From an uncultured Gemmatimonadales bacterium (GTDB lineage: Bacteria > Gemmatimonadota > Gemmatimonadetes > Gemmatimonadales > Gemmatimonadaceae), in contig CAWKNZ010000002.1 in NCBI GenBank assembly GCA_963851265.1, positions 256,001 to 320,000 on the forward strand: 64,000 bases of DNA, written 5' to 3'. The translations under genes and the position numbers were made by a program. Under the pieces are notes generated by a model. It searched no databases. It was not told the DNA's origin and worked only from the letters and a program-made list of their open reading frames with translations. This document shows positions 9,033 through 18,553 of the stretch, piece after piece. Position 1 is the first letter of the stretch. Each line of letters starts with the position of its first letter.

Positions 9033-10370
9033 CTACCGGCGGGGGCCTGCCACCGACCGGGAAACGCGCCCCGCGCGGCCGACCCGCCCAAAGAGGCGGC
9101 GGTCGGGGAGGACCTGCTCCGCCTCGGACGTGTGCAGCGAGAGTCCGTGCGCCAGGCGCCGCGCGTCGGCGTACACGGCTTCATGCCGCGCGAGGACGGC
9201 GTCCCACGTTTCGGCGGGGCGGGTCGTCCGGTTGTGTCGGGCGATGCTCGCGCGCAGGCGGTCGTCGGTGGCGAGGCGGAGCAGCTGGCCGGCCATGCCG
9301 TCGTCGTCGTCTGCGAGGAGGCCTTCGACGCCGTCGCGGATGAACGCCGCCGGGCCGGCGTGGCGGAGCGCGACCACGGGCAGCCCGGCGCAGCGGGCCT
9401 CGAGCGCGGCGATCCCGAACGACTCGAGGATGGACGGCAGCACGAACGCGTCACTCTCGGCATACAGCGCGCGGATGGCCTCGCGCGGTTGCCACCCGAG
9501 AAGCTCGACGGTGTTGCCGAGGCCGAGCCGGCGGATGTCGCGCTCGACGGCGGCCCGCTCGGGTCCGTCGCCGGCGATGCGGAGCCGGAAGCGCATGCCC
9601 TCGGGCAGCCGCTGTCGGAGCATCGCGGCAATTTCGACGAGCGCGCGCGGGCGTTTACGGCTCGCGAGGCGCATCACCGACGCCAGGTGCAGTTCGCCGG
9701 GCGTGCCGGGCGCGCGACGTGCGACGGCCCACGCGCGCGGGTGGATGCCATTGGGCAGCACCTGCGTTTCGATCACCCGGCCGGCGCGTGCGGCGGCGTC
9801 GCGCACCTCGTCGGCGACGAACGGGCTCACGGCCGTGTGCAGCACGCGCCAGCGCGTCCACCCGAGCAGGCGGTCGGCTGCGGCGCAGAGCGGCACCGCG
9901 CGGCCGAGCACCGAGTGCTGCGTGAGCACCGCCGGGAGGCCGAGCCGGTCGGCGGCCGCCATGCCGGCGAACGCGAGTGGCGAGAGCACGCTCGCGTGCG
10001 AGTGCACGAGGTCGTACTCGCCCTCCCCCAGCACGTCCGTCATCACAGAGCCGAGCCGCAGTGAGGCGGCGATGGCGAAGTGCGGGATGCAGGGGACCCG
10101 CAGCCGGCGCACACGCACGAGATCGGCGCCGTGCGCCATGGCGACCCGCCGGGCCTTTCCCTTACGCTCGGCACCCGGCGCCCGCATCCGGGCCAGGCCG
10201 GCGCCCTCACCGCGGCAGCCCGCCGCGGTCGTGATCACGTCGACGTTGTGTCCCGCGGCGACCAGCTGTTCTGCCAGCGCGCGCACGTGCGTCTCGATGC
10301 CGCCGACCCGGGGCGGATACCAGTCGCAGACCAGCGCGAGGCGGAGCGGGCGGAAGAGGGAAGGACTCAC
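9033..10370 (-). CDS. glycosyltransferase family 4 (PimA/PIG-A-like)
   Basis: CDWYPPRVGGIE, VHSH, PNGI, AGDGPER, ESFGIAALEA. Start uncertain. Confidence 0.88.
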   Translation of the reverse strand: MSPSLFRPLRLALVCDWYPPRVGGIETHVRALAEQLVAAGHNVDVITTAAGCRGEGAGLARMRAPGAERKGKARRVAMAHGADLVRVRRLRVPCIPHFAIAASLRLGSVMTDVLGEGEYDLVHSHASVLSPLAFAGMAAADRLGLPAVLTQHSVLGRAVPLCAAADRLLGWTRWRVLHTAVSPFVADEVRDAAARAGRVIETQVLPNGIHPRAWAVARRAPGTPGELHLASVMRLASRKRPRALVEIAAMLRQRLPEGMRFRLRIAGDGPERAAVERDIRRLGLGNTVELLGWQPREAIRALYAESDAFVLPSILESFGIAALEARCAGLPVVALRHAGPAAFIRDGVEGLLADDDDGMAGQLLRLATDDRLRASIARHNRTTRPAETWDAVLARHEAVYADARRLAHGLSLHTSEAEQVLPDRRLFGRVGRAGRVSRSVAGPRR

Positions 10371-10624
10371 GGAGTTGGCGGCGGGACCGGGGGCGCGGCG
10401 TGAGGGCCGCTTGCCGGCGAGTGGGGGCGGGCGTGGTGCTCGGGGAGCAACACGAACCGCACCGTGCCGGCGCGATAGTCGGAATAGCGGGCAGAACGGA
10501 CCACCACAAGAGTAACGCCGTCGTGACGCCCTGCTGGAATACACCCCTGGCGCATTCCTGTCCCCGCGTTCACGTTCGTCCCCGTTCGACACCACCGTTC
10601 GCCATTCGACACCCGGAGCACCCC

Positions 10625-11125
10625 ATGCCGACCGTCCGCGATCTCCTCGCCCGCAAGAAGTCACATGTCGAGAGCACGGCTGCTACCGCATCGGCTTCCG
10701 CGCCTGCTGCCGCGTCAACGGCCGACCGCGTGGTGATGGTCGACGCGAGGGCGACCGTGCTCGAGGCGGCGCGGCTCATGACCGCACGCGGCATCGGCGG
10801 TCTGATGGTCCGGGACGCGAGCGGCGCGATGGCCGGCATCTTCACCGAGCGCGACGTGCTACGGCGCGTGGTGAACGACGGGCTCGATCCGCGGGAGACT
10901 GCGGTTGCCGACGTGATGACGGCACCCGTCCTCACCGTCACGCCCGACACGACGGTCGACGAGTGCCGGCAACTCTTCACGGGGCGTCGCATCCGCCACC
11001 TGCCGGTGATGGAGCGCGGCGAGCTCTGCGGCGTGGTGACGAGCGGTGACGTGCTCGCGTTCGAAGTCGACGACGCGAAGGCGACGATCGAGCACCTCGA
11101 GGGGTACGTCTTTTCGAACCGCTGA
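10625..11125 (+). CDS. CBS domain-containing protein
   Basis: TVLEAARLM, GIFTERDVLRR, VADVMT, IRHLPV, GVVTSGD. Confidence 0.92.
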   Translation: MPTVRDLLARKKSHVESTAATASASAPAAASTADRVVMVDARATVLEAARLMTARGIGGLMVRDASGAMAGIFTERDVLRRVVNDGLDPRETAVADVMTAPVLTVTPDTTVDECRQLFTGRRIRHLPVMERGELCGVVTSGDVLAFEVDDAKATIEHLEGYVFSNR

Positions 11126-11142
11126 CCGACGGACCTACAGAC

Positions 11143-12651
11143 CTACAACGCAGGCGCGCCGGCGACGCGCTGCACGAGCGCGTACAGGAAGTCGAGCCCC
11201 TCGTAGAAGCTCTTGACGCGCAACTTCTCGTCGCGGCCGTGCGCGTTGCTCTCGCCGGGCGCGCTGAAGAGCCCGCTCACCCCGTACGTCGGCACGCCCA
11301 CGGCGCGCAGGAAGCGCCCGTCGGTGGCGCCGGTGCTCATGGTCGGGATGACGGGGATGTCGCCCCACGTGCGGTGCGTCAGGTCGGTGACGGCCGCCAT
11401 GAGCCCGGGGTCGATCGCGCTCGGCGGCGCGCCGAACTTGTCGGTGGGCGGGATGGTGTAGGTCACGCGCACCCCCGTGTCGGCGACCATCCGCGCGAGC
11501 CCGGCGCGCACCTCTTCGGCGTTGGACGTGGGCACGATGCGACAGTTCACGTTGGCCGTGGCCGACTGCGGCAGCGCGTTGTACGCGTGCCCCCCTCCGA
11601 GCCGCGTGGCGACGCACGTGGTGCGGAGCACCGAGTGGTAGCGCGGGTCGCGCGAGAGGGTGGCCGCGGCGGCCGCGACCGCCGCCGAGTCGGCGCCGTC
11701 GGCGACCAGCGCGCGCATGGCGGCGGCCATGTCGGGGCGCGGCTCGACCGCCGCGGTGCTGGCGAAGTAGGCGCGCGTCACCGGGTTGAGGGCGACCGGG
11801 AAGTCGCTCCGGGCGAGATGGCCTAACGCGTCGGCGAGCTCGTAGATGGCGTTGTCGGGGCGCGGCACGCTCGAGTGGCCGCCGGGGTTGGTGGCGGTGA
11901 GGGTGTAATTCACCGGGACCTTCTCCGCCGCCTGTACGGCGTGCATCAGCGGCCGCGCGCCCGCGACCCCGCCCGCCTCGGTGAGCGTCCCGCCGCCGCC
12001 CTCGTTGAGGGCGTAGGCGGCGTCGAGCAGGTCGCGGTGCGTGCGCGTGAGCCACTCGACGCCGTTCGCGTCGCCCCCTTCCTCGTCGGCCGTGAGCGCG
12101 AGGATCAGGTCGCGCGACGGCGTCCACCCCTCGCGCTTGTAGCGCAGCAGGTTGGCCGTGAAGATCGCGGCCATCGCCTTGTCGTCCGCCGTGCCGCGAC
12201 CGAGGAAGTAGCCGCCCTCCTCGTGCAGCGTGAACGGGTCGCGCGGCCAGTCGGCGCGGTTCGCGGCGACGACGTCGAGGTGCGCGAGGAGCAGGATCGG
12301 TTTCGCGGCGGCGCCCCCCGCGGGCGGCCGGCCGCGGTAGCGGACGATGAGGTTGGCCTTGGTCGGCTTCCCCGGCGGGGTGAGGATCTGGACGTCGGCG
12401 GCGGGAAAACCGGCGGCGCGGAAGCGGGCGGCCATCGCGTCCACGGCGCGCGTGACCGACCCGACGGAATCGACCGTGTTGATCTCGACCAGTTCGCGGT
12501 AGATCGCGCGGGCGGCCTGCTGGTCGGGCGTACGCTGCGCGGCGGCGGTCCGGGCGGTCAGGGCCGTGGCGGCGGCGAGCGAGGCCGCGACAGCCGAGCG
12601 CGCGGCACGGCGGGCGGGGCGGGATGCGGAGTCGTGCGGTGGGCGGCGCAT
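11143..12651 (-). CDS. M20/M25/M40 family metallopeptidase, secreted
   Basis: AHLDVV, GRGTADDK, ADEEGG, GGHSS, GATDG, AHGRDE. Confidence 0.92.
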   Translation of the reverse strand: MRRPPHDSASRPARRAARSAVAASLAAATALTARTAAAQRTPDQQAARAIYRELVEINTVDSVGSVTRAVDAMAARFRAAGFPAADVQILTPPGKPTKANLIVRYRGRPPAGGAAAKPILLLAHLDVVAANRADWPRDPFTLHEEGGYFLGRGTADDKAMAAIFTANLLRYKREGWTPSRDLILALTADEEGGDANGVEWLTRTHRDLLDAAYALNEGGGGTLTEAGGVAGARPLMHAVQAAEKVPVNYTLTATNPGGHSSVPRPDNAIYELADALGHLARSDFPVALNPVTRAYFASTAAVEPRPDMAAAMRALVADGADSAAVAAAAATLSRDPRYHSVLRTTCVATRLGGGHAYNALPQSATANVNCRIVPTSNAEEVRAGLARMVADTGVRVTYTIPPTDKFGAPPSAIDPGLMAAVTDLTHRTWGDIPVIPTMSTGATDGRFLRAVGVPTYGVSGLFSAPGESNAHGRDEKLRVKSFYEGLDFLYALVQRVAGAPAL

Positions 12652-12706
12652 GATCCGGCAGATGAGGGTGGGGGAGGGGGTACGACCAACCTACTGCGTT
12701 CGGAGG

Positions 12707-13918
12707 TCAGTCGCCGCGCAGGGCCGCGGCGGCGTACGCGTCGAGGTGCGAGCCGACGACCGCGTCCCAGCCGAAGGCGTTCGGCACGTCGGCGGCGCTC
12801 GCGGCCTGCATGGCCGCGAGCGCCGCCGGGTCACGCACCCAAGCCGCGGCCTGTTGGGCGAGCACGGCGTCGGACGGGGCGAGCCACCCGTCGATGCCGG
12901 GGCTGACGAAGTCGGCCACGCCCGAGCCCGCGCGGGCGAGCACGGCCAGGCCCGCCGCGCGCGCCTCGAGCGCGGCTATCCCGAACGATTCGCGCACGGT
13001 GGGGAGCACGAACGCGTGCGCCGTTCGGTAGAGCGCGCGCAACTCCGCGCGCGACTGCCAGCCAACGGTCGTGATGACGTCGCCGACGCCGGCGCGCCGC
13101 GCGGCGCGCTCGAGGCGCGCGCGCTCGGGCCCCTCGCCGGCGACGAACACGCGCACGCGCGTACCCGCGGGCGCGGCGTCGCGCATCGCCACCGCGACGG
13201 GCACGAGGGCGAGCGGGCGCTTCTTGCGGACGAGGCGCATCGCGGTGACGAGGCGGATCTCGGGCGCGCTGGCCTCCGTCGCGTTCGCGGTCGCACTCGC
13301 ATCCTGCCCGTCCCGTGGCAGGGCGCGCCACCACGCGAGGTCGGCGCCGTTGGGCAGCACGCGGACGGTCGCGCCCGGTAAGCCGCGCTGCAGTTGGCGG
13401 GCGACGAGTCGGCTCACGCCCGTGAGCACCACGCCCGGGTCGCGGGCCCATCCGGTGAGCGCGTCGGCGGCGCCGAGGACGCGCGCGGCGGCGCGGAGCA
13501 CGGAGTGAAAGGTCACCACGCACGGCAGGTCGCGCCGCCGCGCGGCGGCGACGGCGGCGAACGCGGCGGGCGAGATCACGCTCGCGTGGGCGTGCACGAC
13601 GTCGTACGCGCCGGCGTCGAGCGCGTCGCCGAGGGCGCGGCCCAACGCGGGCGTGTAGGCGACCCCGGCGGCCGGCAGGCGCGGCACGTCGAGGCGGATG
13701 ACGCCGGCGTCCGACTGGTCTGCCGTCTCGCCCGGCGTGGGCGTGAGCACGTCGACGAGGTGCCCGGCGGCCGTGAGGTGGGCGGCGAGCCCGGCGAGTT
13801 GGATCTCGACGCCGCCGCGGCGTGGGAGAAACCAGTCGGACACGAGGGCGATACGCAGTGCGGCCCGGCGCGTGGATCCGCCGGGCCGCGTCTGGCGTAC
13901 GGGTGCGACACCCGTCAC
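12707..13918 (-). CDS. glycosyltransferase family 4 (PimA/PIG-A-like), paralogue of 9033..10370
   Basis: SDWFLPRRGGVE, VHAH, PNG, AGEGPER, ESFGIAALEA. Confidence 0.9.
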   Translation of the reverse strand: MTGVAPVRQTRPGGSTRRAALRIALVSDWFLPRRGGVEIQLAGLAAHLTAAGHLVDVLTPTPGETADQSDAGVIRLDVPRLPAAGVAYTPALGRALGDALDAGAYDVVHAHASVISPAAFAAVAAARRRDLPCVVTFHSVLRAAARVLGAADALTGWARDPGVVLTGVSRLVARQLQRGLPGATVRVLPNGADLAWWRALPRDGQDASATANATEASAPEIRLVTAMRLVRKKRPLALVPVAVAMRDAAPAGTRVRVFVAGEGPERARLERAARRAGVGDVITTVGWQSRAELRALYRTAHAFVLPTVRESFGIAALEARAAGLAVLARAGSGVADFVSPGIDGWLAPSDAVLAQQAAAWVRDPAALAAMQAASAADVPNAFGWDAVVGSHLDAYAAAALRGD

Positions 13919-13928
13919 GGAACCGGGC

Positions 13929-15581
13929 TCACCCGAGGGCGTTGCGCTCCAGCGCTTCGGGCGCGTGCCGGCGGACGGCGCGGCCGAGCGCCTCGACGAC
14001 GCGGTCGATCTGTTCGTCGGTGTGTTCGGCGGTCATCGAGAGCCGAAGGCGGCAGCCGTTGGGCGGCACCGCGGGCGGGGGCACCGGCTGGACGAAGATG
14101 TGGTCTTCTTCGAACAGCGTGCGCCAGACCTTGAGCGTGACGTCGAACGTGCCGACGACGACGGGCAGGATGGGCGTCTGCGTCGCGATCGGGGGGAGGC
14201 CGACGCTCGTGAGGCCCTCGGCCATGCGGCGCGAGTTGGCGCGCAGGCGCTCGCGGCGCTCGGGCTCGTCGAGCATGACGTCGAGGGCGGCGAGGGTGCC
14301 GGCCACCGAGGCGGGGGGCATGGCGGCGGTGAACATGAGCGCCCGCGCGTTGTGCCGCACGTAGTGGATGACCTCCTCCGATCCGGCGAGCACGCCGCCG
14401 ACCGAGGCGAGCGACTTGGAGAACGTCGCCATGATGAGGTCGACCTCGTCGTCGAGGCCGAAGTGCCGCGCCGTGCCCGCGCCGTCCTCGCCGAGCACGC
14501 CGAGCGCGTGGGCGTCGTCGAGGAGGAGCGCCGCACCGCGCTCGCGGCAGAGGGCGACGAGGCCGGGCACGTCGGCGATGACGCCGTCCATCGAGAACAC
14601 GCCGTCGGTGACGACGAGCTTGCCGGCGCCTTCGGGGGCCCGGTCCATCTGCCGCGCGAGGTGCTGCAGGTCGTTGTGCGCGTAGCGCACCGTGTGCCCC
14701 ATCGAGAGTCGCGCGCCGTCGACGATGCAGGCGTGGTCGAGCTTGTCGAGGTAGGCGATGTCGTCGCGGCCGACGAGGGCGGCGATGGTGCCCAGGCTCG
14801 CCTGGTAGCCGGTGGTGAAGACGAGCGCCGCCTCCTTGCGGTAGAACGCCGCCAGGCGGGCCTCGAGCGTCTCGTGCAGGTCGAGCGTGCCGTTGAGCAG
14901 GCGACTGCCGGTCGCCCCGGAGCCGTACCGCTGGGCCGCGGCCGCGCCGGCCTCGAGCACCTTGGGGTGGTGCGTGAGGCCGAGGTAGTTGTTGGAGCCG
15001 AGCATGATCTTCCAGCGCCCGTCGATGCGCGCCTCGCTCGGCGTGGTTTCCTCGATCGCGCGGAAGTAGGCGTAGACGCCGCGGGCGATCAGGTCGCGCG
15101 CGCGCGTGTCGGCCGCCGCCTTGGCGAACAGCGGGTTGTGCGCGGCGCCCGTGCGGGCCGTGCCCGTGCGGGCCGTGTCCGTCTGGGCGGCACCGTGGGT
15201 CGCGTTGCCCGGGACTCCGCTGCCGGGGAGCCCGTTGCCGAGCAGGCCACTGCCGGGGGCGCCGTTGCCGTGGGCGCCGTTGCCGGGGGCGCCGTTGCCG
15301 TGCACGCCGTTGCCGTGCACGCCGTTGCCGTGCACGCCGGCAGCTGGCGCGGTGTAGGCGTGGATGGCGGGCAGGCCCGTGGGCGGCGTGACCGTGGCCG
15401 TCGCGCCGTTCGCGTAGGCGCCGTTGCCCGAAGCGCCGTTGGCATGCGTGCCGTTGGCATGCGTGCCGTTGGCGTGCGCACGATCGGGGTGTGCGCCACC
15501 GGGATGGGCGCCATCGGGGTGCGCGCCGTTGCTGAGCGCACCGTTCGACAGAGCGCCGGTGGCCTTGGACGGCCGGTTCAT
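13929..15581 (-). CDS. PLP-dependent alpha-oxoamine synthase, serine palmitoyltransferase-like, with repetitive N-terminal extension
   Basis: YAYFRAI, GSNNYLGL, TGSRLLNGT, HACIVDG, DGVFSMDG, DDAHALG, TFSKSLASVGG (PLP lysine). Confidence 0.85.
   Translation of the reverse strand: MNRPSKATGALSNGALSNGAHPDGAHPGGAHPDRAHANGTHANGTHANGASGNGAYANGATATVTPPTGLPAIHAYTAPAAGVHGNGVHGNGVHGNGAPGNGAHGNGAPGSGLLGNGLPGSGVPGNATHGAAQTDTARTGTARTGAAHNPLFAKAAADTRARDLIARGVYAYFRAIEETTPSEARIDGRWKIMLGSNNYLGLTHHPKVLEAGAAAAQRYGSGATGSRLLNGTLDLHETLEARLAAFYRKEAALVFTTGYQASLGTIAALVGRDDIAYLDKLDHACIVDGARLSMGHTVRYAHNDLQHLARQMDRAPEGAGKLVVTDGVFSMDGVIADVPGLVALCRERGAALLLDDAHALGVLGEDGAGTARHFGLDDEVDLIMATFSKSLASVGGVLAGSEEVIHYVRHNARALMFTAAMPPASVAGTLAALDVMLDEPERRERLRANSRRMAEGLTSVGLPPIATQTPILPVVVGTFDVTLKVWRTLFEEDHIFVQPVPPPAVPPNGCRLRLSMTAEHTDEQIDRVVEALGRAVRRHAPEALERNALG
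15146..15560 (-). repeat. imperfect 15-bp tandem repeats encoding NGxHx / GxxGN / TARTG pentapeptides
   Basis: For example tgcacgccgttgccg and gcatgcgtgccgttg are repeated in tandem. Confidence 0.9.
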
Positions 15582-15819
15582 CAGAATGGTGTCCGCGGGG
15601 AATCTCTGGGCGCCTCGGCGCACGCTACTGGCGCGCAAGGTAACCGACCTGTGACGGCGACTCTACGATCCTCCAGTCATTCCCCGTCATTTAGCGTGCG
15701 CAAGACGCTTCGGCCGCGGCCGTCCGACGACCTCGGGCGTGAGATCGGACCTCGACTGCCCTCCGGCCGAGCGTTCCGGACCGGTCGGGCTCGGGCTCGG
15801 TCCCGCCTACATTGCGACC

Positions 15820-16890
15820 GTGCAAAGCCTTGCCTCCGCCGCGCCGGTCGCCGGCGCGTCCGACCTGTCCGTCCGCCCAGCCCTCGGGCTACTCGCCGGC
15901 TGGCTGCTGATCACCGCGTTGCCGCTCGCGGGTACGATCGCCGACCCGGGCGTGTCGTTCGGGCGCGCGCGGCACCTCGTACTGTTCGCCGCCGCCCTGC
16001 TCGCGCTGGCGCTCGCGCCGCGTGTTCCGCCCCGCCGGGTACCGCCGGCGCGGGACGATGCGCCGTCGCGCGCGGCGGACGTGGCGGGCGAATCGTGGAC
16101 GCTGTTCCTGGCGTGGCTGCCGCTCGCGGCCGTGCCCGCGCTCTACGCCGAGCTTCCTCTCGTCGCGGCCGGGATCGCCGGACACGGCGCGAGTCTCGCG
16201 GCGATGCACGACGCCACGGTCGTTCGTTGGGAACTCGCCCTGTTCGGTCCGTCTCTGGGTGCGAGCCCCGCGCTCGTCCTGGCGCGCGCCGCGCCCTGGA
16301 CGCCGCTCAGCGAACTGCTTCACCTCGCGTACCTCTCGTACTACGTCATCATCTACGTGCCCCCCGCGCTGCTGTGGTGGGAAGCGCGGCGCCGGCGCGC
16401 GAGCGCGTCGCTCACCGGGGCGCCCGACCCGCAGGCGGCGTTCGAGACGAGCGCGTTCACCGTGCTGTTGGCGTTCCTGCTCTGCTACTCCGTGTTCGTG
16501 GTGTTCCCGGTGCAGGGGCCGTGGTACACGTGGCAGACGGGCGGCCCGGGCGGGCTTCCGCTCACGGGTGTGGTGCGCGGGTTCGTGCAGAGCCTGCTGC
16601 TCGCGGGCTCGGCGCGGGGCACGGCGTTCCCGTCGTCGCACGTGGCCGTGAGCGTGGCCCAGACGGTCGTGCTCGCGCGCGTGGCACCGCGGCTGGCCTG
16701 GATCGCCGCGCCGGCGACGGTGCTGCTCGCGCTCGGCGCGGTGTACGGCGGGTACCACTACGGCGTCGACGCGCTCGCCGGGGCGGCGTTCGGTGCGGTG
16801 GCGGGGCTCGCGGGGCCGTGGCTGCTCGGGCTCGCGGAGCGGCGGAGTGCGCGCGGGGCCGAGACCTCGGCGGTGGCGGCGTGGCAGTAG
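15820..16890 (+). CDS. PAP2 superfamily membrane protein (Aur1/IPC-synthase-like)
   Basis: Multiple TM segments; YLSYY, FPVQGPWY, AFPSSHV, HYGVD. GTG start lies 6 nt after TACATT. Confidence 0.85.
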   Translation: MQSLASAAPVAGASDLSVRPALGLLAGWLLITALPLAGTIADPGVSFGRARHLVLFAAALLALALAPRVPPRRVPPARDDAPSRAADVAGESWTLFLAWLPLAAVPALYAELPLVAAGIAGHGASLAAMHDATVVRWELALFGPSLGASPALVLARAAPWTPLSELLHLAYLSYYVIIYVPPALLWWEARRRRASASLTGAPDPQAAFETSAFTVLLAFLLCYSVFVVFPVQGPWYTWQTGGPGGLPLTGVVRGFVQSLLLAGSARGTAFPSSHVAVSVAQTVVLARVAPRLAWIAAPATVLLALGAVYGGYHYGVDALAGAAFGAVAGLAGPWLLGLAERRSARGAETSAVAAWQ

Positions 16891-16956
16891 GGCGCTTCGG
16901 GTAGGCGTTCCGGAGGGGGCCGTCGTGGGGCGCGCCGGACGCGTCGCTACAAGTCG

Positions 16957-17976
16957 CTACAACAGGCCCTGGGTGTGGTACCAGGCGTGCGTGCGCCTGG
17001 CACCCTCCACGAGGCCGACGGCCGGGACCCAGCCCAGTTCGAGTCGCGCGCGCGCGGCCGAACAGCACCACCAGCGCGGACGCCCGAGTCGCAGCTTCTC
17101 GCGGGTGACGAGCACCTCGCGGTGGGTGAGCGCGGCCCAGGCGTCGCCGGCGATCCCGGCCGCGGCGAGCACGAAGGCTGGCGCGTCGAGGCCCCAGCGC
17201 ACGCGGCAGCCTGCGGCGGCGGCGGCGGCGTCGTACACCGCGGGCCACGGCACACGTTCGTCGCCGGCGACGAAGTAGGTACCGCCGACGGCTTGCGGGG
17301 CCGTCGCGGCGAGCACGAGCGCCCGCGCGAGGTCGCCCACGTAGACCATCGACAGCCACGCGTCGCGGGTGCCGGGGTAGAGCGCCATGCCGCGCGCGGC
17401 GTGGCGGAAGACGGGGAGAAAGTCGACGTCGCGCGGGCCGTACACGGCGGACGGGCGCACGATCGTCCACGGGACGCCGCCGGGGTGCGCGGCGACGAGC
17501 CGCTCCGCCTCGCGCTTGCTGTGGCCGTAGGCGCCCACCGGTTCGGCGGCGTCGCGCTCGGTGCGCGGGCGGTCGAGCGCGTGCGCGGCGCCCGCGGCGG
17601 CCTGCGACGAGACGAGGACGAAGCGCGGCGGCGGGTCGCCGGACGACGCCGCACGCGCCGCGAGCGCGTCGAGCAGGGCCGCGGTGGGCGCGACGTTGCC
17701 CGCGCGGAACTCCGCGAGCGTGCGACGCCTGGTCACGCCCGCGACGTGGAGGACGGCGTCGACGCCGTCGAACGCGGGCGAGCGGCGGAGCGCGTCGGCG
17801 TCGGTGAGCGGCGCGGCGTGGGTCTCGACGCGCCGCGCGAGCGCGTCGGGGAGGGCGAGCGGCACCGGCGCGCTCTCGGGGCGCACGAGGCGCCGCACGG
17901 TCCACCCCGCGCCCGCGAGCGCCTCGACGAGGTGCGAGCCGACGAACCCCGAGCTCCCGGTGACGAGGGCGAGCAC
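16957..17976 (-). CDS. NAD-dependent epimerase/dehydratase (extended SDR, 3-beta-HSD-like)
   Basis: VTGSSGFVGS, HVAG, VSSQAA, YGHSK, RPSAVYGPRD. Confidence 0.92.
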   Translation of the reverse strand: MLALVTGSSGFVGSHLVEALAGAGWTVRRLVRPESAPVPLALPDALARRVETHAAPLTDADALRRSPAFDGVDAVLHVAGVTRRRTLAEFRAGNVAPTAALLDALAARAASSGDPPPRFVLVSSQAAAGAAHALDRPRTERDAAEPVGAYGHSKREAERLVAAHPGGVPWTIVRPSAVYGPRDVDFLPVFRHAARGMALYPGTRDAWLSMVYVGDLARALVLAATAPQAVGGTYFVAGDERVPWPAVYDAAAAAAGCRVRWGLDAPAFVLAAAGIAGDAWAALTHREVLVTREKLRLGRPRWWCCSAARARLELGWVPAVGLVEGARRTHAWYHTQGLL

Positions 17977-17983
17977 GCCGCGC

Positions 17984-18553
17984 CTAACGCCGCGCCGCGC
18001 GGCGGGCCGGTCCGGGGCGCGCCGGCGCCCGGCGCTCGTCGGCCGCGAGGCGCTTCACGAACAGGAACTTCTTCCCGATCGACAGCTCCGAGCGCGAGAT
18101 CGCCGCGTAGCGCGCGATCTTCTCCGGGTAGCGCGCGAGGCTCGACTGGCGGAAACCCGCGGCCGTGAACAGGGTGTCGGCGAGCGAGACGGCGAACAGC
18201 TCGGGGTAGCCGCGCTGCCGCGCGAGCGCCTCGGCGGCCGCGATCAGGCGCCGCCCGAGTCCGCGCCCCTGCGCCTCGGGCGCGACGGCGAGCGAGACGA
18301 GTTCGGCGAGCGACGGCGCGTACTCGTCGATCGCGACGCAGCCTAACAGCGGGGCGTCGTGGCCCGCCGGGGCGCCGTCCGCGCCGCGAGGGGCGTCGCC
18401 TCGCGCCACGCGGTAGCCCTCGATGCGCGCCGCGACGAAGGCCGGCGTGCGCGGCAGCGTGAGCCCGTCGGGCGCGTAGCGGTTGTTGAGCGCGGCGATC
18501 GCTTCGGCGTCCTCCGGGCGCGCGGGGACGATGGCCGGGGCGGCGTCCGTCAC
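17984..18553 (-). CDS. GNAT N-acetyltransferase (short ArgA-like)
   Basis: LPRT, AELVSLAV..EAQGRGLGRRL, FxxxGF, PEKI. Confidence 0.85.
   Translation of the reverse strand: MTDAAPAIVPARPEDAEAIAALNNRYAPDGLTLPRTPAFVAARIEGYRVARGDAPRGADGAPAGHDAPLLGCVAIDEYAPSLAELVSLAVAPEAQGRGLGRRLIAAAEALARQRGYPELFAVSLADTLFTAAGFRQSSLARYPEKIARYAAISRSELSIGKKFLFVKRLAADERRAPARPGPARRAARR

Follow-up and report, generated by a model that had tools for sequence, protein, structure and literature searches.

A Gemmatimonadota gene cluster for probable ceramide synthesis and a candidate route to glucosaminyl-inositol-phosphoceramide

The window, a 64,000-nucleotide stretch of DNA from an uncultured Gemmatimonadales bacterium (G000:C2:256001-320000; genomes, contigs and fetched loci carry G, C and L numbers, and G000 is the source genome, 94% complete), holds a putative sphingolipid locus. 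A first-pass annotation had picked out five genes here, all of which were confirmed in place (Table 1): an oxoamine synthase resembling serine palmitoyltransferase (Spt), a glycosyltransferase of family 4 (GT4) directly downstream, a divergent PAP2 membrane protein, an extended short-chain dehydrogenase/reductase (SDR) and a second GT4. We tentatively propose, with a little under even confidence, that the cluster to which they belong makes ceramide and converts it to glucosaminyl-inositol-phosphoceramide, the inositol of the head group being suggested by gene context. The proposal was examined against a set of 41 genomes, one of them unpublished (G011, which has ino1 and is without Spt orthologue, PAP2, GT4 and deacetylase, and on which alone no claim rests); named close homologues from Gemmatimonadota came from Gemmatirosa, Roseisolibacter and Gemmatimonadaceae.

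The identification of the oxoamine synthase as Spt is well supported by homology. Its best solved relative is Spt 3a2b (393.6 bits, against 260.8 for the best BioF or Kbl structure), and the best of 12 NCBIfam models is the Bacteroidota Spt model NF047600 (463.7 bits, cut-off 640; BioF 390). In a tree of 28 rows the enzyme falls into an 18-row group with seven Spt references, three of which pass NCBIfam Spt cut-offs, while E. coli BioF, Kbl and the genome's own paralogues stand outside, so that it groups with Spt and apart from the two enzymes with which the first-pass annotation had proposed to compare it. Two further rows were near matches from a search for Alphaproteobacteria Spt, in which 0 of 61 exceeded the NF047603 cut-off. 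Together with its genus mate the window enzyme is sister (100/100) to three Gemmatimonadota Spts from intact clusters of the kind described below, and in the alignment it shares with the Spt references the pyridoxal phosphate lysine in TFSKS and the GSRxxNG motif. Of the 41 genomes, 24 hold an orthologue that scores above 400 bits. It is very improbable that the enzyme is instead BioF, Kbl or a synthase of sulfonolipids or other aminolipids, with no sphingolipid being made. The sub-cut-off NF047600 score and the 93/90 branch to the Spt references, which is below starred support, would allow this, but the Caulobacter Spt, taken as a control, also scores below the cut-off of its own NCBIfam model, a Kbl above cut-off and BioF-like genes are encoded separately in the genome, the cysteate acyltransferase structure reaches only 240.8 bits, and homologues of the next two ceramide enzymes travel with the window synthase.

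The first of these, the bacterial ceramide synthase (bCerS), was found when the rest of the genome was searched for it, as the first-pass annotation had suggested. The homologue lies on another contig than the window (G000:C1:148561-149706, about 385 aa) and is 35% identical to E. coli YghO over all 385 residues (E 5e-60); yghO is listed alongside Caulobacter CC_1154, the ceramide synthase (PMC9386255). Strong matches were present in 20 of the 24 genomes with Spt, three others (G030, G032, G034) had weak paralogues only, and no match was found in G002, which is 78% complete. Solved structures searched with bCerS gave no match. The small GNAT gene upstream of the SDR was considered as a ceramide synthase and rejected, being ArgA-like and half the size of bCerS. 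By sequence comparison the window SDR is a homologue of the ceramide reductase CerR: no other protein of the source genome matches the E. coli epi/CerR protein as well, with 28% identity (E 8e-25) to the epimerase gene product of the spt-acp-epi-yghO cluster, and its N-terminus opens directly with the Rossmann motif. We are highly confident that Spt, bCerS and the SDR synthesize ceramide and form a complete ceramide core. Homologues of all three Caulobacter crescentus/E. coli BL21 enzymes, Spt, bCerS (CC_1154, YghO) and CerR (CC_1164), are present in the genome and usually form one operon in relatives (PMC9386255, PMC11324152, PMC11334938), although the window Spt is Bacteroidota-like and has no recognisable AcpR or AasR gene at its side, bCerS has been relocated to a different contig in the window genus, and the genes for the head group are not those of the Caulobacter cpg set.

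The arrangement of these genes is conserved, and the linkage is beyond chance. In the window spt lies upstream of the first GT4 gene (GT4a) on the same strand with a gap of 10 nt, the PAP2_3 gene is divergent from spt, and the SDR gene converges on it across 66 nt. Among 24 Spt-orthologue loci (the window included, 8-21 kb fetched), the SDR stands beside Spt in all 24, PAP2 in 21, bCerS in 16 and GT4 in four; the profiles for this tally were built from those same loci and gene positions, not scores, are the evidence. Relatives usually show the order Spt, a GNAT of about 370 aa, SDR and PAP2. Where the cluster is intact (L113, L118, L130, L134, L137 and others), a divergent PAP2 gene is followed by bCerS, Spt and GT4, and then, on the other strand, by a flippase, a deacetylase and the SDR. 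The window is a loosened piece of this larger PAP2-bCerS-Spt-GT4-flippase-deacetylase-CerR cluster.

Some observations on Spt and its surroundings stand apart from this argument. The window Spt has an N-terminal extension of about 150 residues with low-complexity repeats before the conserved core; at 15147-15527 of the window, 15-nt tandem repeats encode NGAH/NGVH-like pentapeptides, and the length of the open frame varies within the genus (476-577 aa). Two near-equal BioF-like oxoamine synthases on a long branch lie on different contigs of the source genome (G000:C2:903339-904382 and C10:112016-113059), through duplication or assembly overlap. A non-Spt-clade oxoamine synthase replaces Spt in 13 of 30 Gemmatimonadota GT4 loci (G008 L096:5808-9242; L102-L108, L110, L111, L117, L119, L126, L128); it adjoins SDR, bCerS and PAP2, is fused to fatty acyl-AMP ligase and acyl carrier protein domains where checked, and perhaps acts as an alternative Spt that primes itself. 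A further protein family without a name, of about 350-450 aa and unmatched in Pfam and NCBIfam, adjoins Spt loci in five genomes (L053:4219-5796, L053:7839-9215, L052:10783-12279, L035, L036, L040) and is absent from the source genome by tblastn. Spt-bCerS-SDR sets also occur in Actinomycetota records, on a Rubrobacter radiotolerans plasmid (L199:8905-12272) and in Nonomuraea (L288), and next after the Rubrobacter set comes a gene of the LTA synthase family, whose product might serve as an alternative head-group transferase. Close to bCerS, in L092:204-8542 (G000:C1:140-148.5 kb), lies a cassette of a nucleoside triphosphate (NTP) transferase, a class III aminotransferase, a CDP-alcohol phosphotransferase, a Gfo/Idh/MocA oxidoreductase and a second flippase. 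Related genes, with a HAD gene, adjoin Spt in G021 and G023 (compare L052 and L053). The cassette resembles the alternative inositol-lipid cluster described in PMC9246714, with amino-polyol chemistry added, and may make a second head group.

The window PAP2 protein is probably the enzyme that places a head group on ceramide. An Aur1-type fold and active site had been expected for it, and both were borne out, as was the PAP2_3 family match (Table 1). The His-His-Asp triad (C2 His; C3 HxxxD), defined for Aur1 in PMC13133130, is invariant in 17 of 17 aligned PAP2 rows. A predicted model (pLDDT 85) has Aur1 as its top Foldseek match (E 2.7e-5), and the only two matches under E 0.001 are both Aur1, at modest TM-scores of 0.39-0.43; with VIA, Aur1 9vj4 gave Z 16.8 and rmsd 3.8 over 253 aligned residues, followed by LpxE with Z 13.2 over 163. 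A PAP2 profile searched against the PDB aligned over its full length only to yeast Aur1 (E 0.05), and the single sequence found no match among solved structures. In that profile search the phosphatases LpxE and YodM had better E-values through C-terminal motifs only, which, with the failure to find a PgpA in the source genome, favours the idea that the protein is a lipid phosphatase for ceramide-1-phosphate, phosphatidylinositol phosphate (PIP) or PIP-ceramide, possibly even the missing PIP phosphatase. We regard this as highly improbable. Phosphatase C1 and C3 motifs use Lys and Arg residues, whereas in the alignment the window protein has PVxGP and VYxxxHYxxD without them; the full-length match in sequence and structure is to Aur1 only, and no strong match to the protein occurs in 14 genomes that have ino1 and are without Spt. 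Strong PAP2 matches are found in 25 of the 41 genomes, namely all 24 with an Spt orthologue and G008, which has the fused oxoamine synthase, and in none of the other 16 (two short weak matches), 14 of which have ino1, so that PAP2 tracks the sphingolipid synthase and not inositol supply. Metagenome loci point the same way, with Spt-like or bCerS genes in 37 of the 41 PAP2 loci of at least 5 kb and in 58 of all 80.

Which head group it transfers is a separate question. A bacterial Aur1-like inositol-phosphoceramide (IPC) synthase is already known, BT_1522 (PMC9246714, PMC8791184), and the window system shares with Aur1 (PMC13133130) and with BT_1522 and its partners BT_1523/1525/1526 (PMC9246714, PMC8791184) the whole-protein fold, the triad and, in the genome, ino1 and a PIP synthase. 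It differs in that its PAP2_3 subfamily is distinct and linked to CerR rather than to inositol genes, and in that no PgpA was found. The first-pass suggestion of an Aur1-type inositol-phosphate transferase fails as a claim of orthology, the protein not being in the BT_1522 family, and inositol transfer rests on context in other phyla. On the BT_1522 model NF052609 (cut-off 480), PAP2 proteins sitting with PIP synthase or PgpA score 128-316 bits and window-PAP2 orthologues at most 28, with none of the 41 relatives above 30; the motifs differ as well (PVxGP / AFPSSH / HYxxD in the window subfamily, PAAPPW / AMPSLH / HHxxxD in the BT_1522 type). The window subfamily (91/90) includes a Nonomuraea PAP2 beside Spt, bCerS and SDR, and PAP2 proteins of Bacteroides finegoldii (L284:4874-6837) and Prevotella (L286:3648-5708) encoded directly behind a CerR-like SDR. 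These SDR-linked Bacteroidota proteins are candidate ceramide-phosphoethanolamine (Cer-PE) synthases.

The sugar module consists of the GT4 enzymes, a deacetylase and a predicted flippase. The last two lie 1-3 kb before the window start, about 10-12 kb from the second GT4 gene (GT4b), as in G001, G002 and G004, and were missed in the first pass. GT4a and GT4b are paralogues, as proposed (40% identity over 408 columns), but they are not adjacent, and the quoted N-terminal motif SDWFLPRRGGVE holds for GT4a and not for GT4b, which reads CDWYPPRVGGIE. In a quick GT4 tree GT4b stands apart from GT4a, and the unresolved backbone singles out neither as the ancestral cluster GT4. GT4a orthologues occur in six of the 41 genomes and a deacetylase orthologue in exactly the same six, which represent two genera and not six independent cases. 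The neighbourhoods of the best 80 of 577 GT4 relatives, from a scan over 22 of 64 parts of a genome collection, include 30 Gemmatimonadota loci, 25 of which hold a ceramide-pathway gene and 28 a PF01522 deacetylase or LPG_synthase_TM flippase. This layout is that of gpgSDF of Pseudomonas aeruginosa, which makes glucosaminyl-phosphatidylglycerol (GlcN-PG), and of hexSDF of Clostridioides difficile, in which a GT4, a deacetylase and an LPG_synthase_TM/UPF0104-type flippase yield a free-amine hexosamine lipid (PMC12713373). The genes being co-inherited in this same layout, we infer a free-amine hexosamine cap, and GT4 and deacetylase together probably give a hexosamine lipid. The window module differs from gpgSDF in the family label of its deacetylase, in GT4 scores far below the GpgS cut-off and in its ties to ceramide and inositol genes. 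An ESM Atlas search for GT4 returned generic GT4 clusters only.

The same layout also suggests a glucosaminyl-phosphoglycerol head group, with GlcN-PG made as by GpgS/GpgD and its head group moved to ceramide by PAP2, or, as a variant, a head group made by the amino-polyol cassette that adjoins bCerS here and whose NTP transferase, CDP-alcohol transferase and Gfo genes also adjoin Spt in G021 and G023. We think this improbable: GT4a and GT4b score 45.7 and 27.5 bits on the GpgS model NF053787 (cut-off 480), values at which a GpgS orthologue was rejected, and the deacetylase belongs to PF01522 where GpgD is listed as COG3233 (PMC12713373).

As to what the GT4 acts on, a likeness to the PIG-A/PimA branch had been put forward, and part of it stands. 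GT4b is the only stretch of the source genome that matches the PIG-A model PF08288, at 23 bits, and its G008 orthologue reaches 26 (cut-off 27); the model matches 15 of 47 members of the GT4 subfamily at E 0.01, GT4a not among them, and sub-cut-off matches also arose in six of 14 control genomes. The subfamily has a weak PIG-A-like signal, but it lies below cut-off, and in a PDB search with a GT4 profile BshA (125 bits) slightly exceeded PimA (117). GT4-type ceramide glycosyltransferases are known from Caulobacter, Zymomonas and Bacteroides fragilis, and the GT4 might glycosylate ceramide directly, giving HexNAc-ceramide and, after deacetylation, HexN-ceramide, with PAP2 in a separate phosphosphingolipid branch. 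The 10-nt distance of GT4a from spt, the overlap of GT4 with bCerS in G008 and the absence of inositol genes from the Gemmatimonadota clusters are in keeping with this route, which we consider unlikely in view of the PIG-A-like signal and of the company that the subfamily keeps in proteobacteria, where it sits with phosphatidylinositol-synthesis genes in five of five loci, three of them without a nearby ceramide gene.

Two further observations concern the GT4 loci. In G002 the GT4a orthologue appears as two overlapping matches in different frames (G002:C1:1559076-1560202), by frameshift or assembly error. A Wzi-like (PF14052) protein is encoded in 19 of the 80 GT4 loci (L133:10827-12491; L164:1783-3474), with a homologue at G000:C2:351588-353195, and might help to export the lipid or to display it at the outer membrane.

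The presumed source of inositol lies elsewhere in the genome. A search for ino1, also suggested in the first pass, returned two copies above cut-off, one directly behind a PIP-synthase-like CDP-alcohol transferase (C2:992-995 kb) and the other (C2:384 kb) among unrelated genes and not tied to the pathway. Stronger, though indirect, support for inositol is found in other phyla. In a Myxococcota locus (L164), whose genome has ino1, a single cluster combines Spt, bCerS, SDR, GT4, deacetylase, flippase, an MMPL/HpnN-like transporter and a BT_1522-like PAP2 (172 bits), and in Beijerinckiaceae (L109) an oxoamine synthase is found with a PIP-synthase-like gene, PgpA, a BT_1522-like PAP2, a sphingolipid desaturase, ino1, GT4, flippase and deacetylase, with a bCerS homologue in the genome. 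GT4 loci with ino1, PIP-synthase-like or PgpA genes number five of five in proteobacteria and one of two in verrucomicrobia. In the simplest joint reading an inositol head group would be the substrate of the GT4, and the slot held in L164 and L109 by the BT_1522-like enzyme would be filled in Gemmatimonadota by the PAP2, a substitution suggested by analogy. The Myxococcota transporter, of the HpnN/MMPL RND type (L164:3646-6096), is a candidate lipid exporter in its own right.

Several results weigh against inositol in the head group or against a fixed sugar module. The PIP synthase scores best on NF045883 at 150.9 bits, below the cut-off of 170, and no PgpA-type PIP phosphatase was found in the source genome at its 94% completeness. 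No ino1 or PIP synthase gene occurs in the 30 Gemmatimonadota GT4 loci, nor in any of the 80 metagenome loci of the window PAP2 subfamily, and the Spt clade does not include the oxoamine synthases of L109 and L123. Actinobacterial GT4 relatives are without any partner gene in 41 of 41 cases at the thresholds used, and 19 of the 24 Spt genomes are without a GT4 or deacetylase orthologue, from which it follows that the sugar module is optional. To these are added the sub-cut-off PF08288 score of GT4b and the edge of BshA over PimA. The window PAP2 was rejected as a BT_1522 orthologue, with no NF052609 match at E 0.05 and a place on the opposite side of a 99/99 branch. Its Bacteroidota relatives follow a CerR-like SDR, and Prevotella holds both PAP2 subfamilies. 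Loss of BT_1522 alone is described as abolishing phosphatidylinositol-ceramide in B. thetaiotaomicron (PMC9246714), so a CerR-linked PAP2 there, if present, is not an inositol phosphate transferase.

These last points bear on the main competitor of the proposal, namely that two products are made: PAP2 would make ceramide-phosphoethanolamine (or -phosphoglycerol) from a common phospholipid, and GT4, deacetylase and flippase would make glucosaminyl-phosphatidylinositol on diacylglycerol. We give this a one-in-four chance. The Bacteroides finegoldii and Prevotella gene pairs fit it, as do a phosphatidylserine decarboxylase in the source genome and four loci (L114, L116, L139, L162) that have GT4, deacetylase and phosphatidylinositol genes and no ceramide gene in the fetched stretch. 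However, the sugar module is interleaved with ceramide genes in the 25 of 30 Gemmatimonadota loci and in the Myxococcota cluster, and Spt or bCerS often stands directly upstream of GT4 on the same strand, which is hard to explain for unrelated products.

For glucosaminyl-inositol-phosphoceramide, the pathway that we prefer, the steps may be as follows. Spt would condense serine with an acyl thioester, a step well supported by homology; bCerS would N-acylate the product and the SDR would reduce the 3-keto group, as homology and synteny suggest. Ino1 and the adjacent PIP synthase, whose genes are present, would supply phosphatidylinositol. On the cytoplasmic face the GT4 may add N-acetylglucosamine (GlcNAc) to the inositol and the deacetylase may free the amine, both suggested by the gpgSDF layout and the PIG-A-like signal, and the flippase would move the lipid across the membrane. 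PAP2, which has the fold and triad of Aur1, would work in the manner of Aur1 and, by way of a phospho-histidine intermediate, replace the diacylglycerol of this presumed donor with ceramide. The order of the GT4/deacetylase, flippase and PAP2 steps is left flexible, and the second GT4 could be redundant or could attach one more sugar. The topology fits, with a head group built on the cytoplasmic face, flipped, and transferred to ceramide on the outer face: Spt and bCerS are reported to be cytoplasmic and CerR periplasmic in Caulobacter (10.1101/2023.11.08.566215), and the active site of Aur1 is described as luminal (PMC13133130).

Table 1. Features of the locus (window positions; those with the prefix C2 are contig positions).
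Feature	Position	Strand	Remarks
Spt (oxoamine synthase)	13929..15638	-	likely start ATG 15581; conserved core from about 15140
GT4a glycosyltransferase	12707..13918	-	Pfam GT4 families; predicted HexNAc transferase on a lipid
GT4b, GT4a paralogue	9033..10370	-	likely start GTG 10370; open frame back to 10664
PAP2_3 membrane protein	15739 or 15820 to 16890	+	PF14378 44.8 bits; predicted lipid phosphotransferase (phospho-head group onto ceramide)
Extended SDR, CerR (ceramide reductase) homologue	16957..17976	-	PF01370
CBS-pair protein, between the GT4 genes	10626..11125	+	PF00571
M20 peptidase, between the GT4 genes	11143..12651	-	NF006596 above cut-off
Small ArgA-like GNAT, upstream of the SDR	17984..18553	-	189 aa; amino-acid N-acetyltransferases are the best NCBIfam matches, all below cut-off
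Deacetylase	C2:252995-253738		PF01522; just before the window start
Flippase	C2:253954-254904		LPG_synthase_TM/UPF0104 type; just before the window start

The two genes between GT4a and GT4b were also considered as pathway members and rejected. Of the other clustered Spt loci, only L031-L033, which belong to the same genus, have the CBS-pair gene at this position, and it is probably a passenger confined to the genus. The M20 peptidase is a strain-only passenger insertion, missing between the GT4 genes in those same three loci, all of which span the position.

The first-pass annotation had likened the pathway to glycosyl inositol phosphoceramide (GIPC) and glycosylphosphatidylinositol (GPI) synthesis alike. 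The deacetylase and flippase outside the window, with the free-amine hexosamine cap that they suggest, make GPI the more specific comparison and plant-type GIPC the less specific one. In eukaryotes, synthesis of the GPI core proceeds through PIG-A and then PIG-L. The predicted chemistry here is the same, with GlcNAc added to inositol, de-N-acetylation, flipping and a ceramide backbone, and with the weak PF08288 signal, but that signal is below cut-off and the deacetylase is a PF01522 protein without the PIG-L fold. The clusters showed no mannosyl, ethanolamine-phosphate or transamidase genes, and protein anchoring is accordingly not implied. Plant-type GIPC synthesis uses GT8 glucuronosyl transfer to IPC and GT64 GlcNAc transfer; no GT8 or GT64 gene was seen in the annotated clusters, the genome as a whole not having been searched for them. 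In yeast and Trypanosoma cruzi, glucosaminyl-IPC is reported to form the anchor core (PMC11765627).

Spt-like genes have been reported from 40 phyla (PMC11334938), and the ceramide core, taken by itself, extends a known pathway in an unremarkable way. Each module of the cluster is known, and for the combination no report was found. A literature search, with subscription papers outside it, showed among the papers listed no report of a joined ceramide, Aur1-fold and GT4-deacetylase-flippase cluster, of bacterial glucosaminyl-IPC, of sphingolipids of Gemmatimonadota or of a Bacteroides PAP2 Cer-PE synthase. Cer-PE is the main Bacteroides sphingolipid, and one study recorded no match to the eukaryotic enzyme that makes it (PMC8791184); for the bacterial enzyme the CerR-linked PAP2 subfamily now offers a definite candidate. 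On a wider view, which we hold to be possible but rather unlikely, at least three phyla, among them Gemmatimonadota, Myxococcota and Alphaproteobacteria, would build glucosaminyl-inositol-phosphoceramide, which in eukaryotes forms the lipid core of GPI anchors and GIPLs, by means of a PIG-A-like GT4, a convergent deacetylase, a flippase and a transferase with the Aur1 fold. The CerR-linked PAP2 subfamily would then transfer ceramide head groups in bacteria generally, its Bacteroides member making Cer-PE. From the cluster a phosphosphingolipid with an amino sugar is to be expected in a phylum that has been little studied. If it is a compact bacterial gene set for glucosaminyl-inositol-phosphoceramide, it would be a minimal system that could be rebuilt in E. 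coli, and it would bear on the origin of GPI and GIPC chemistry.

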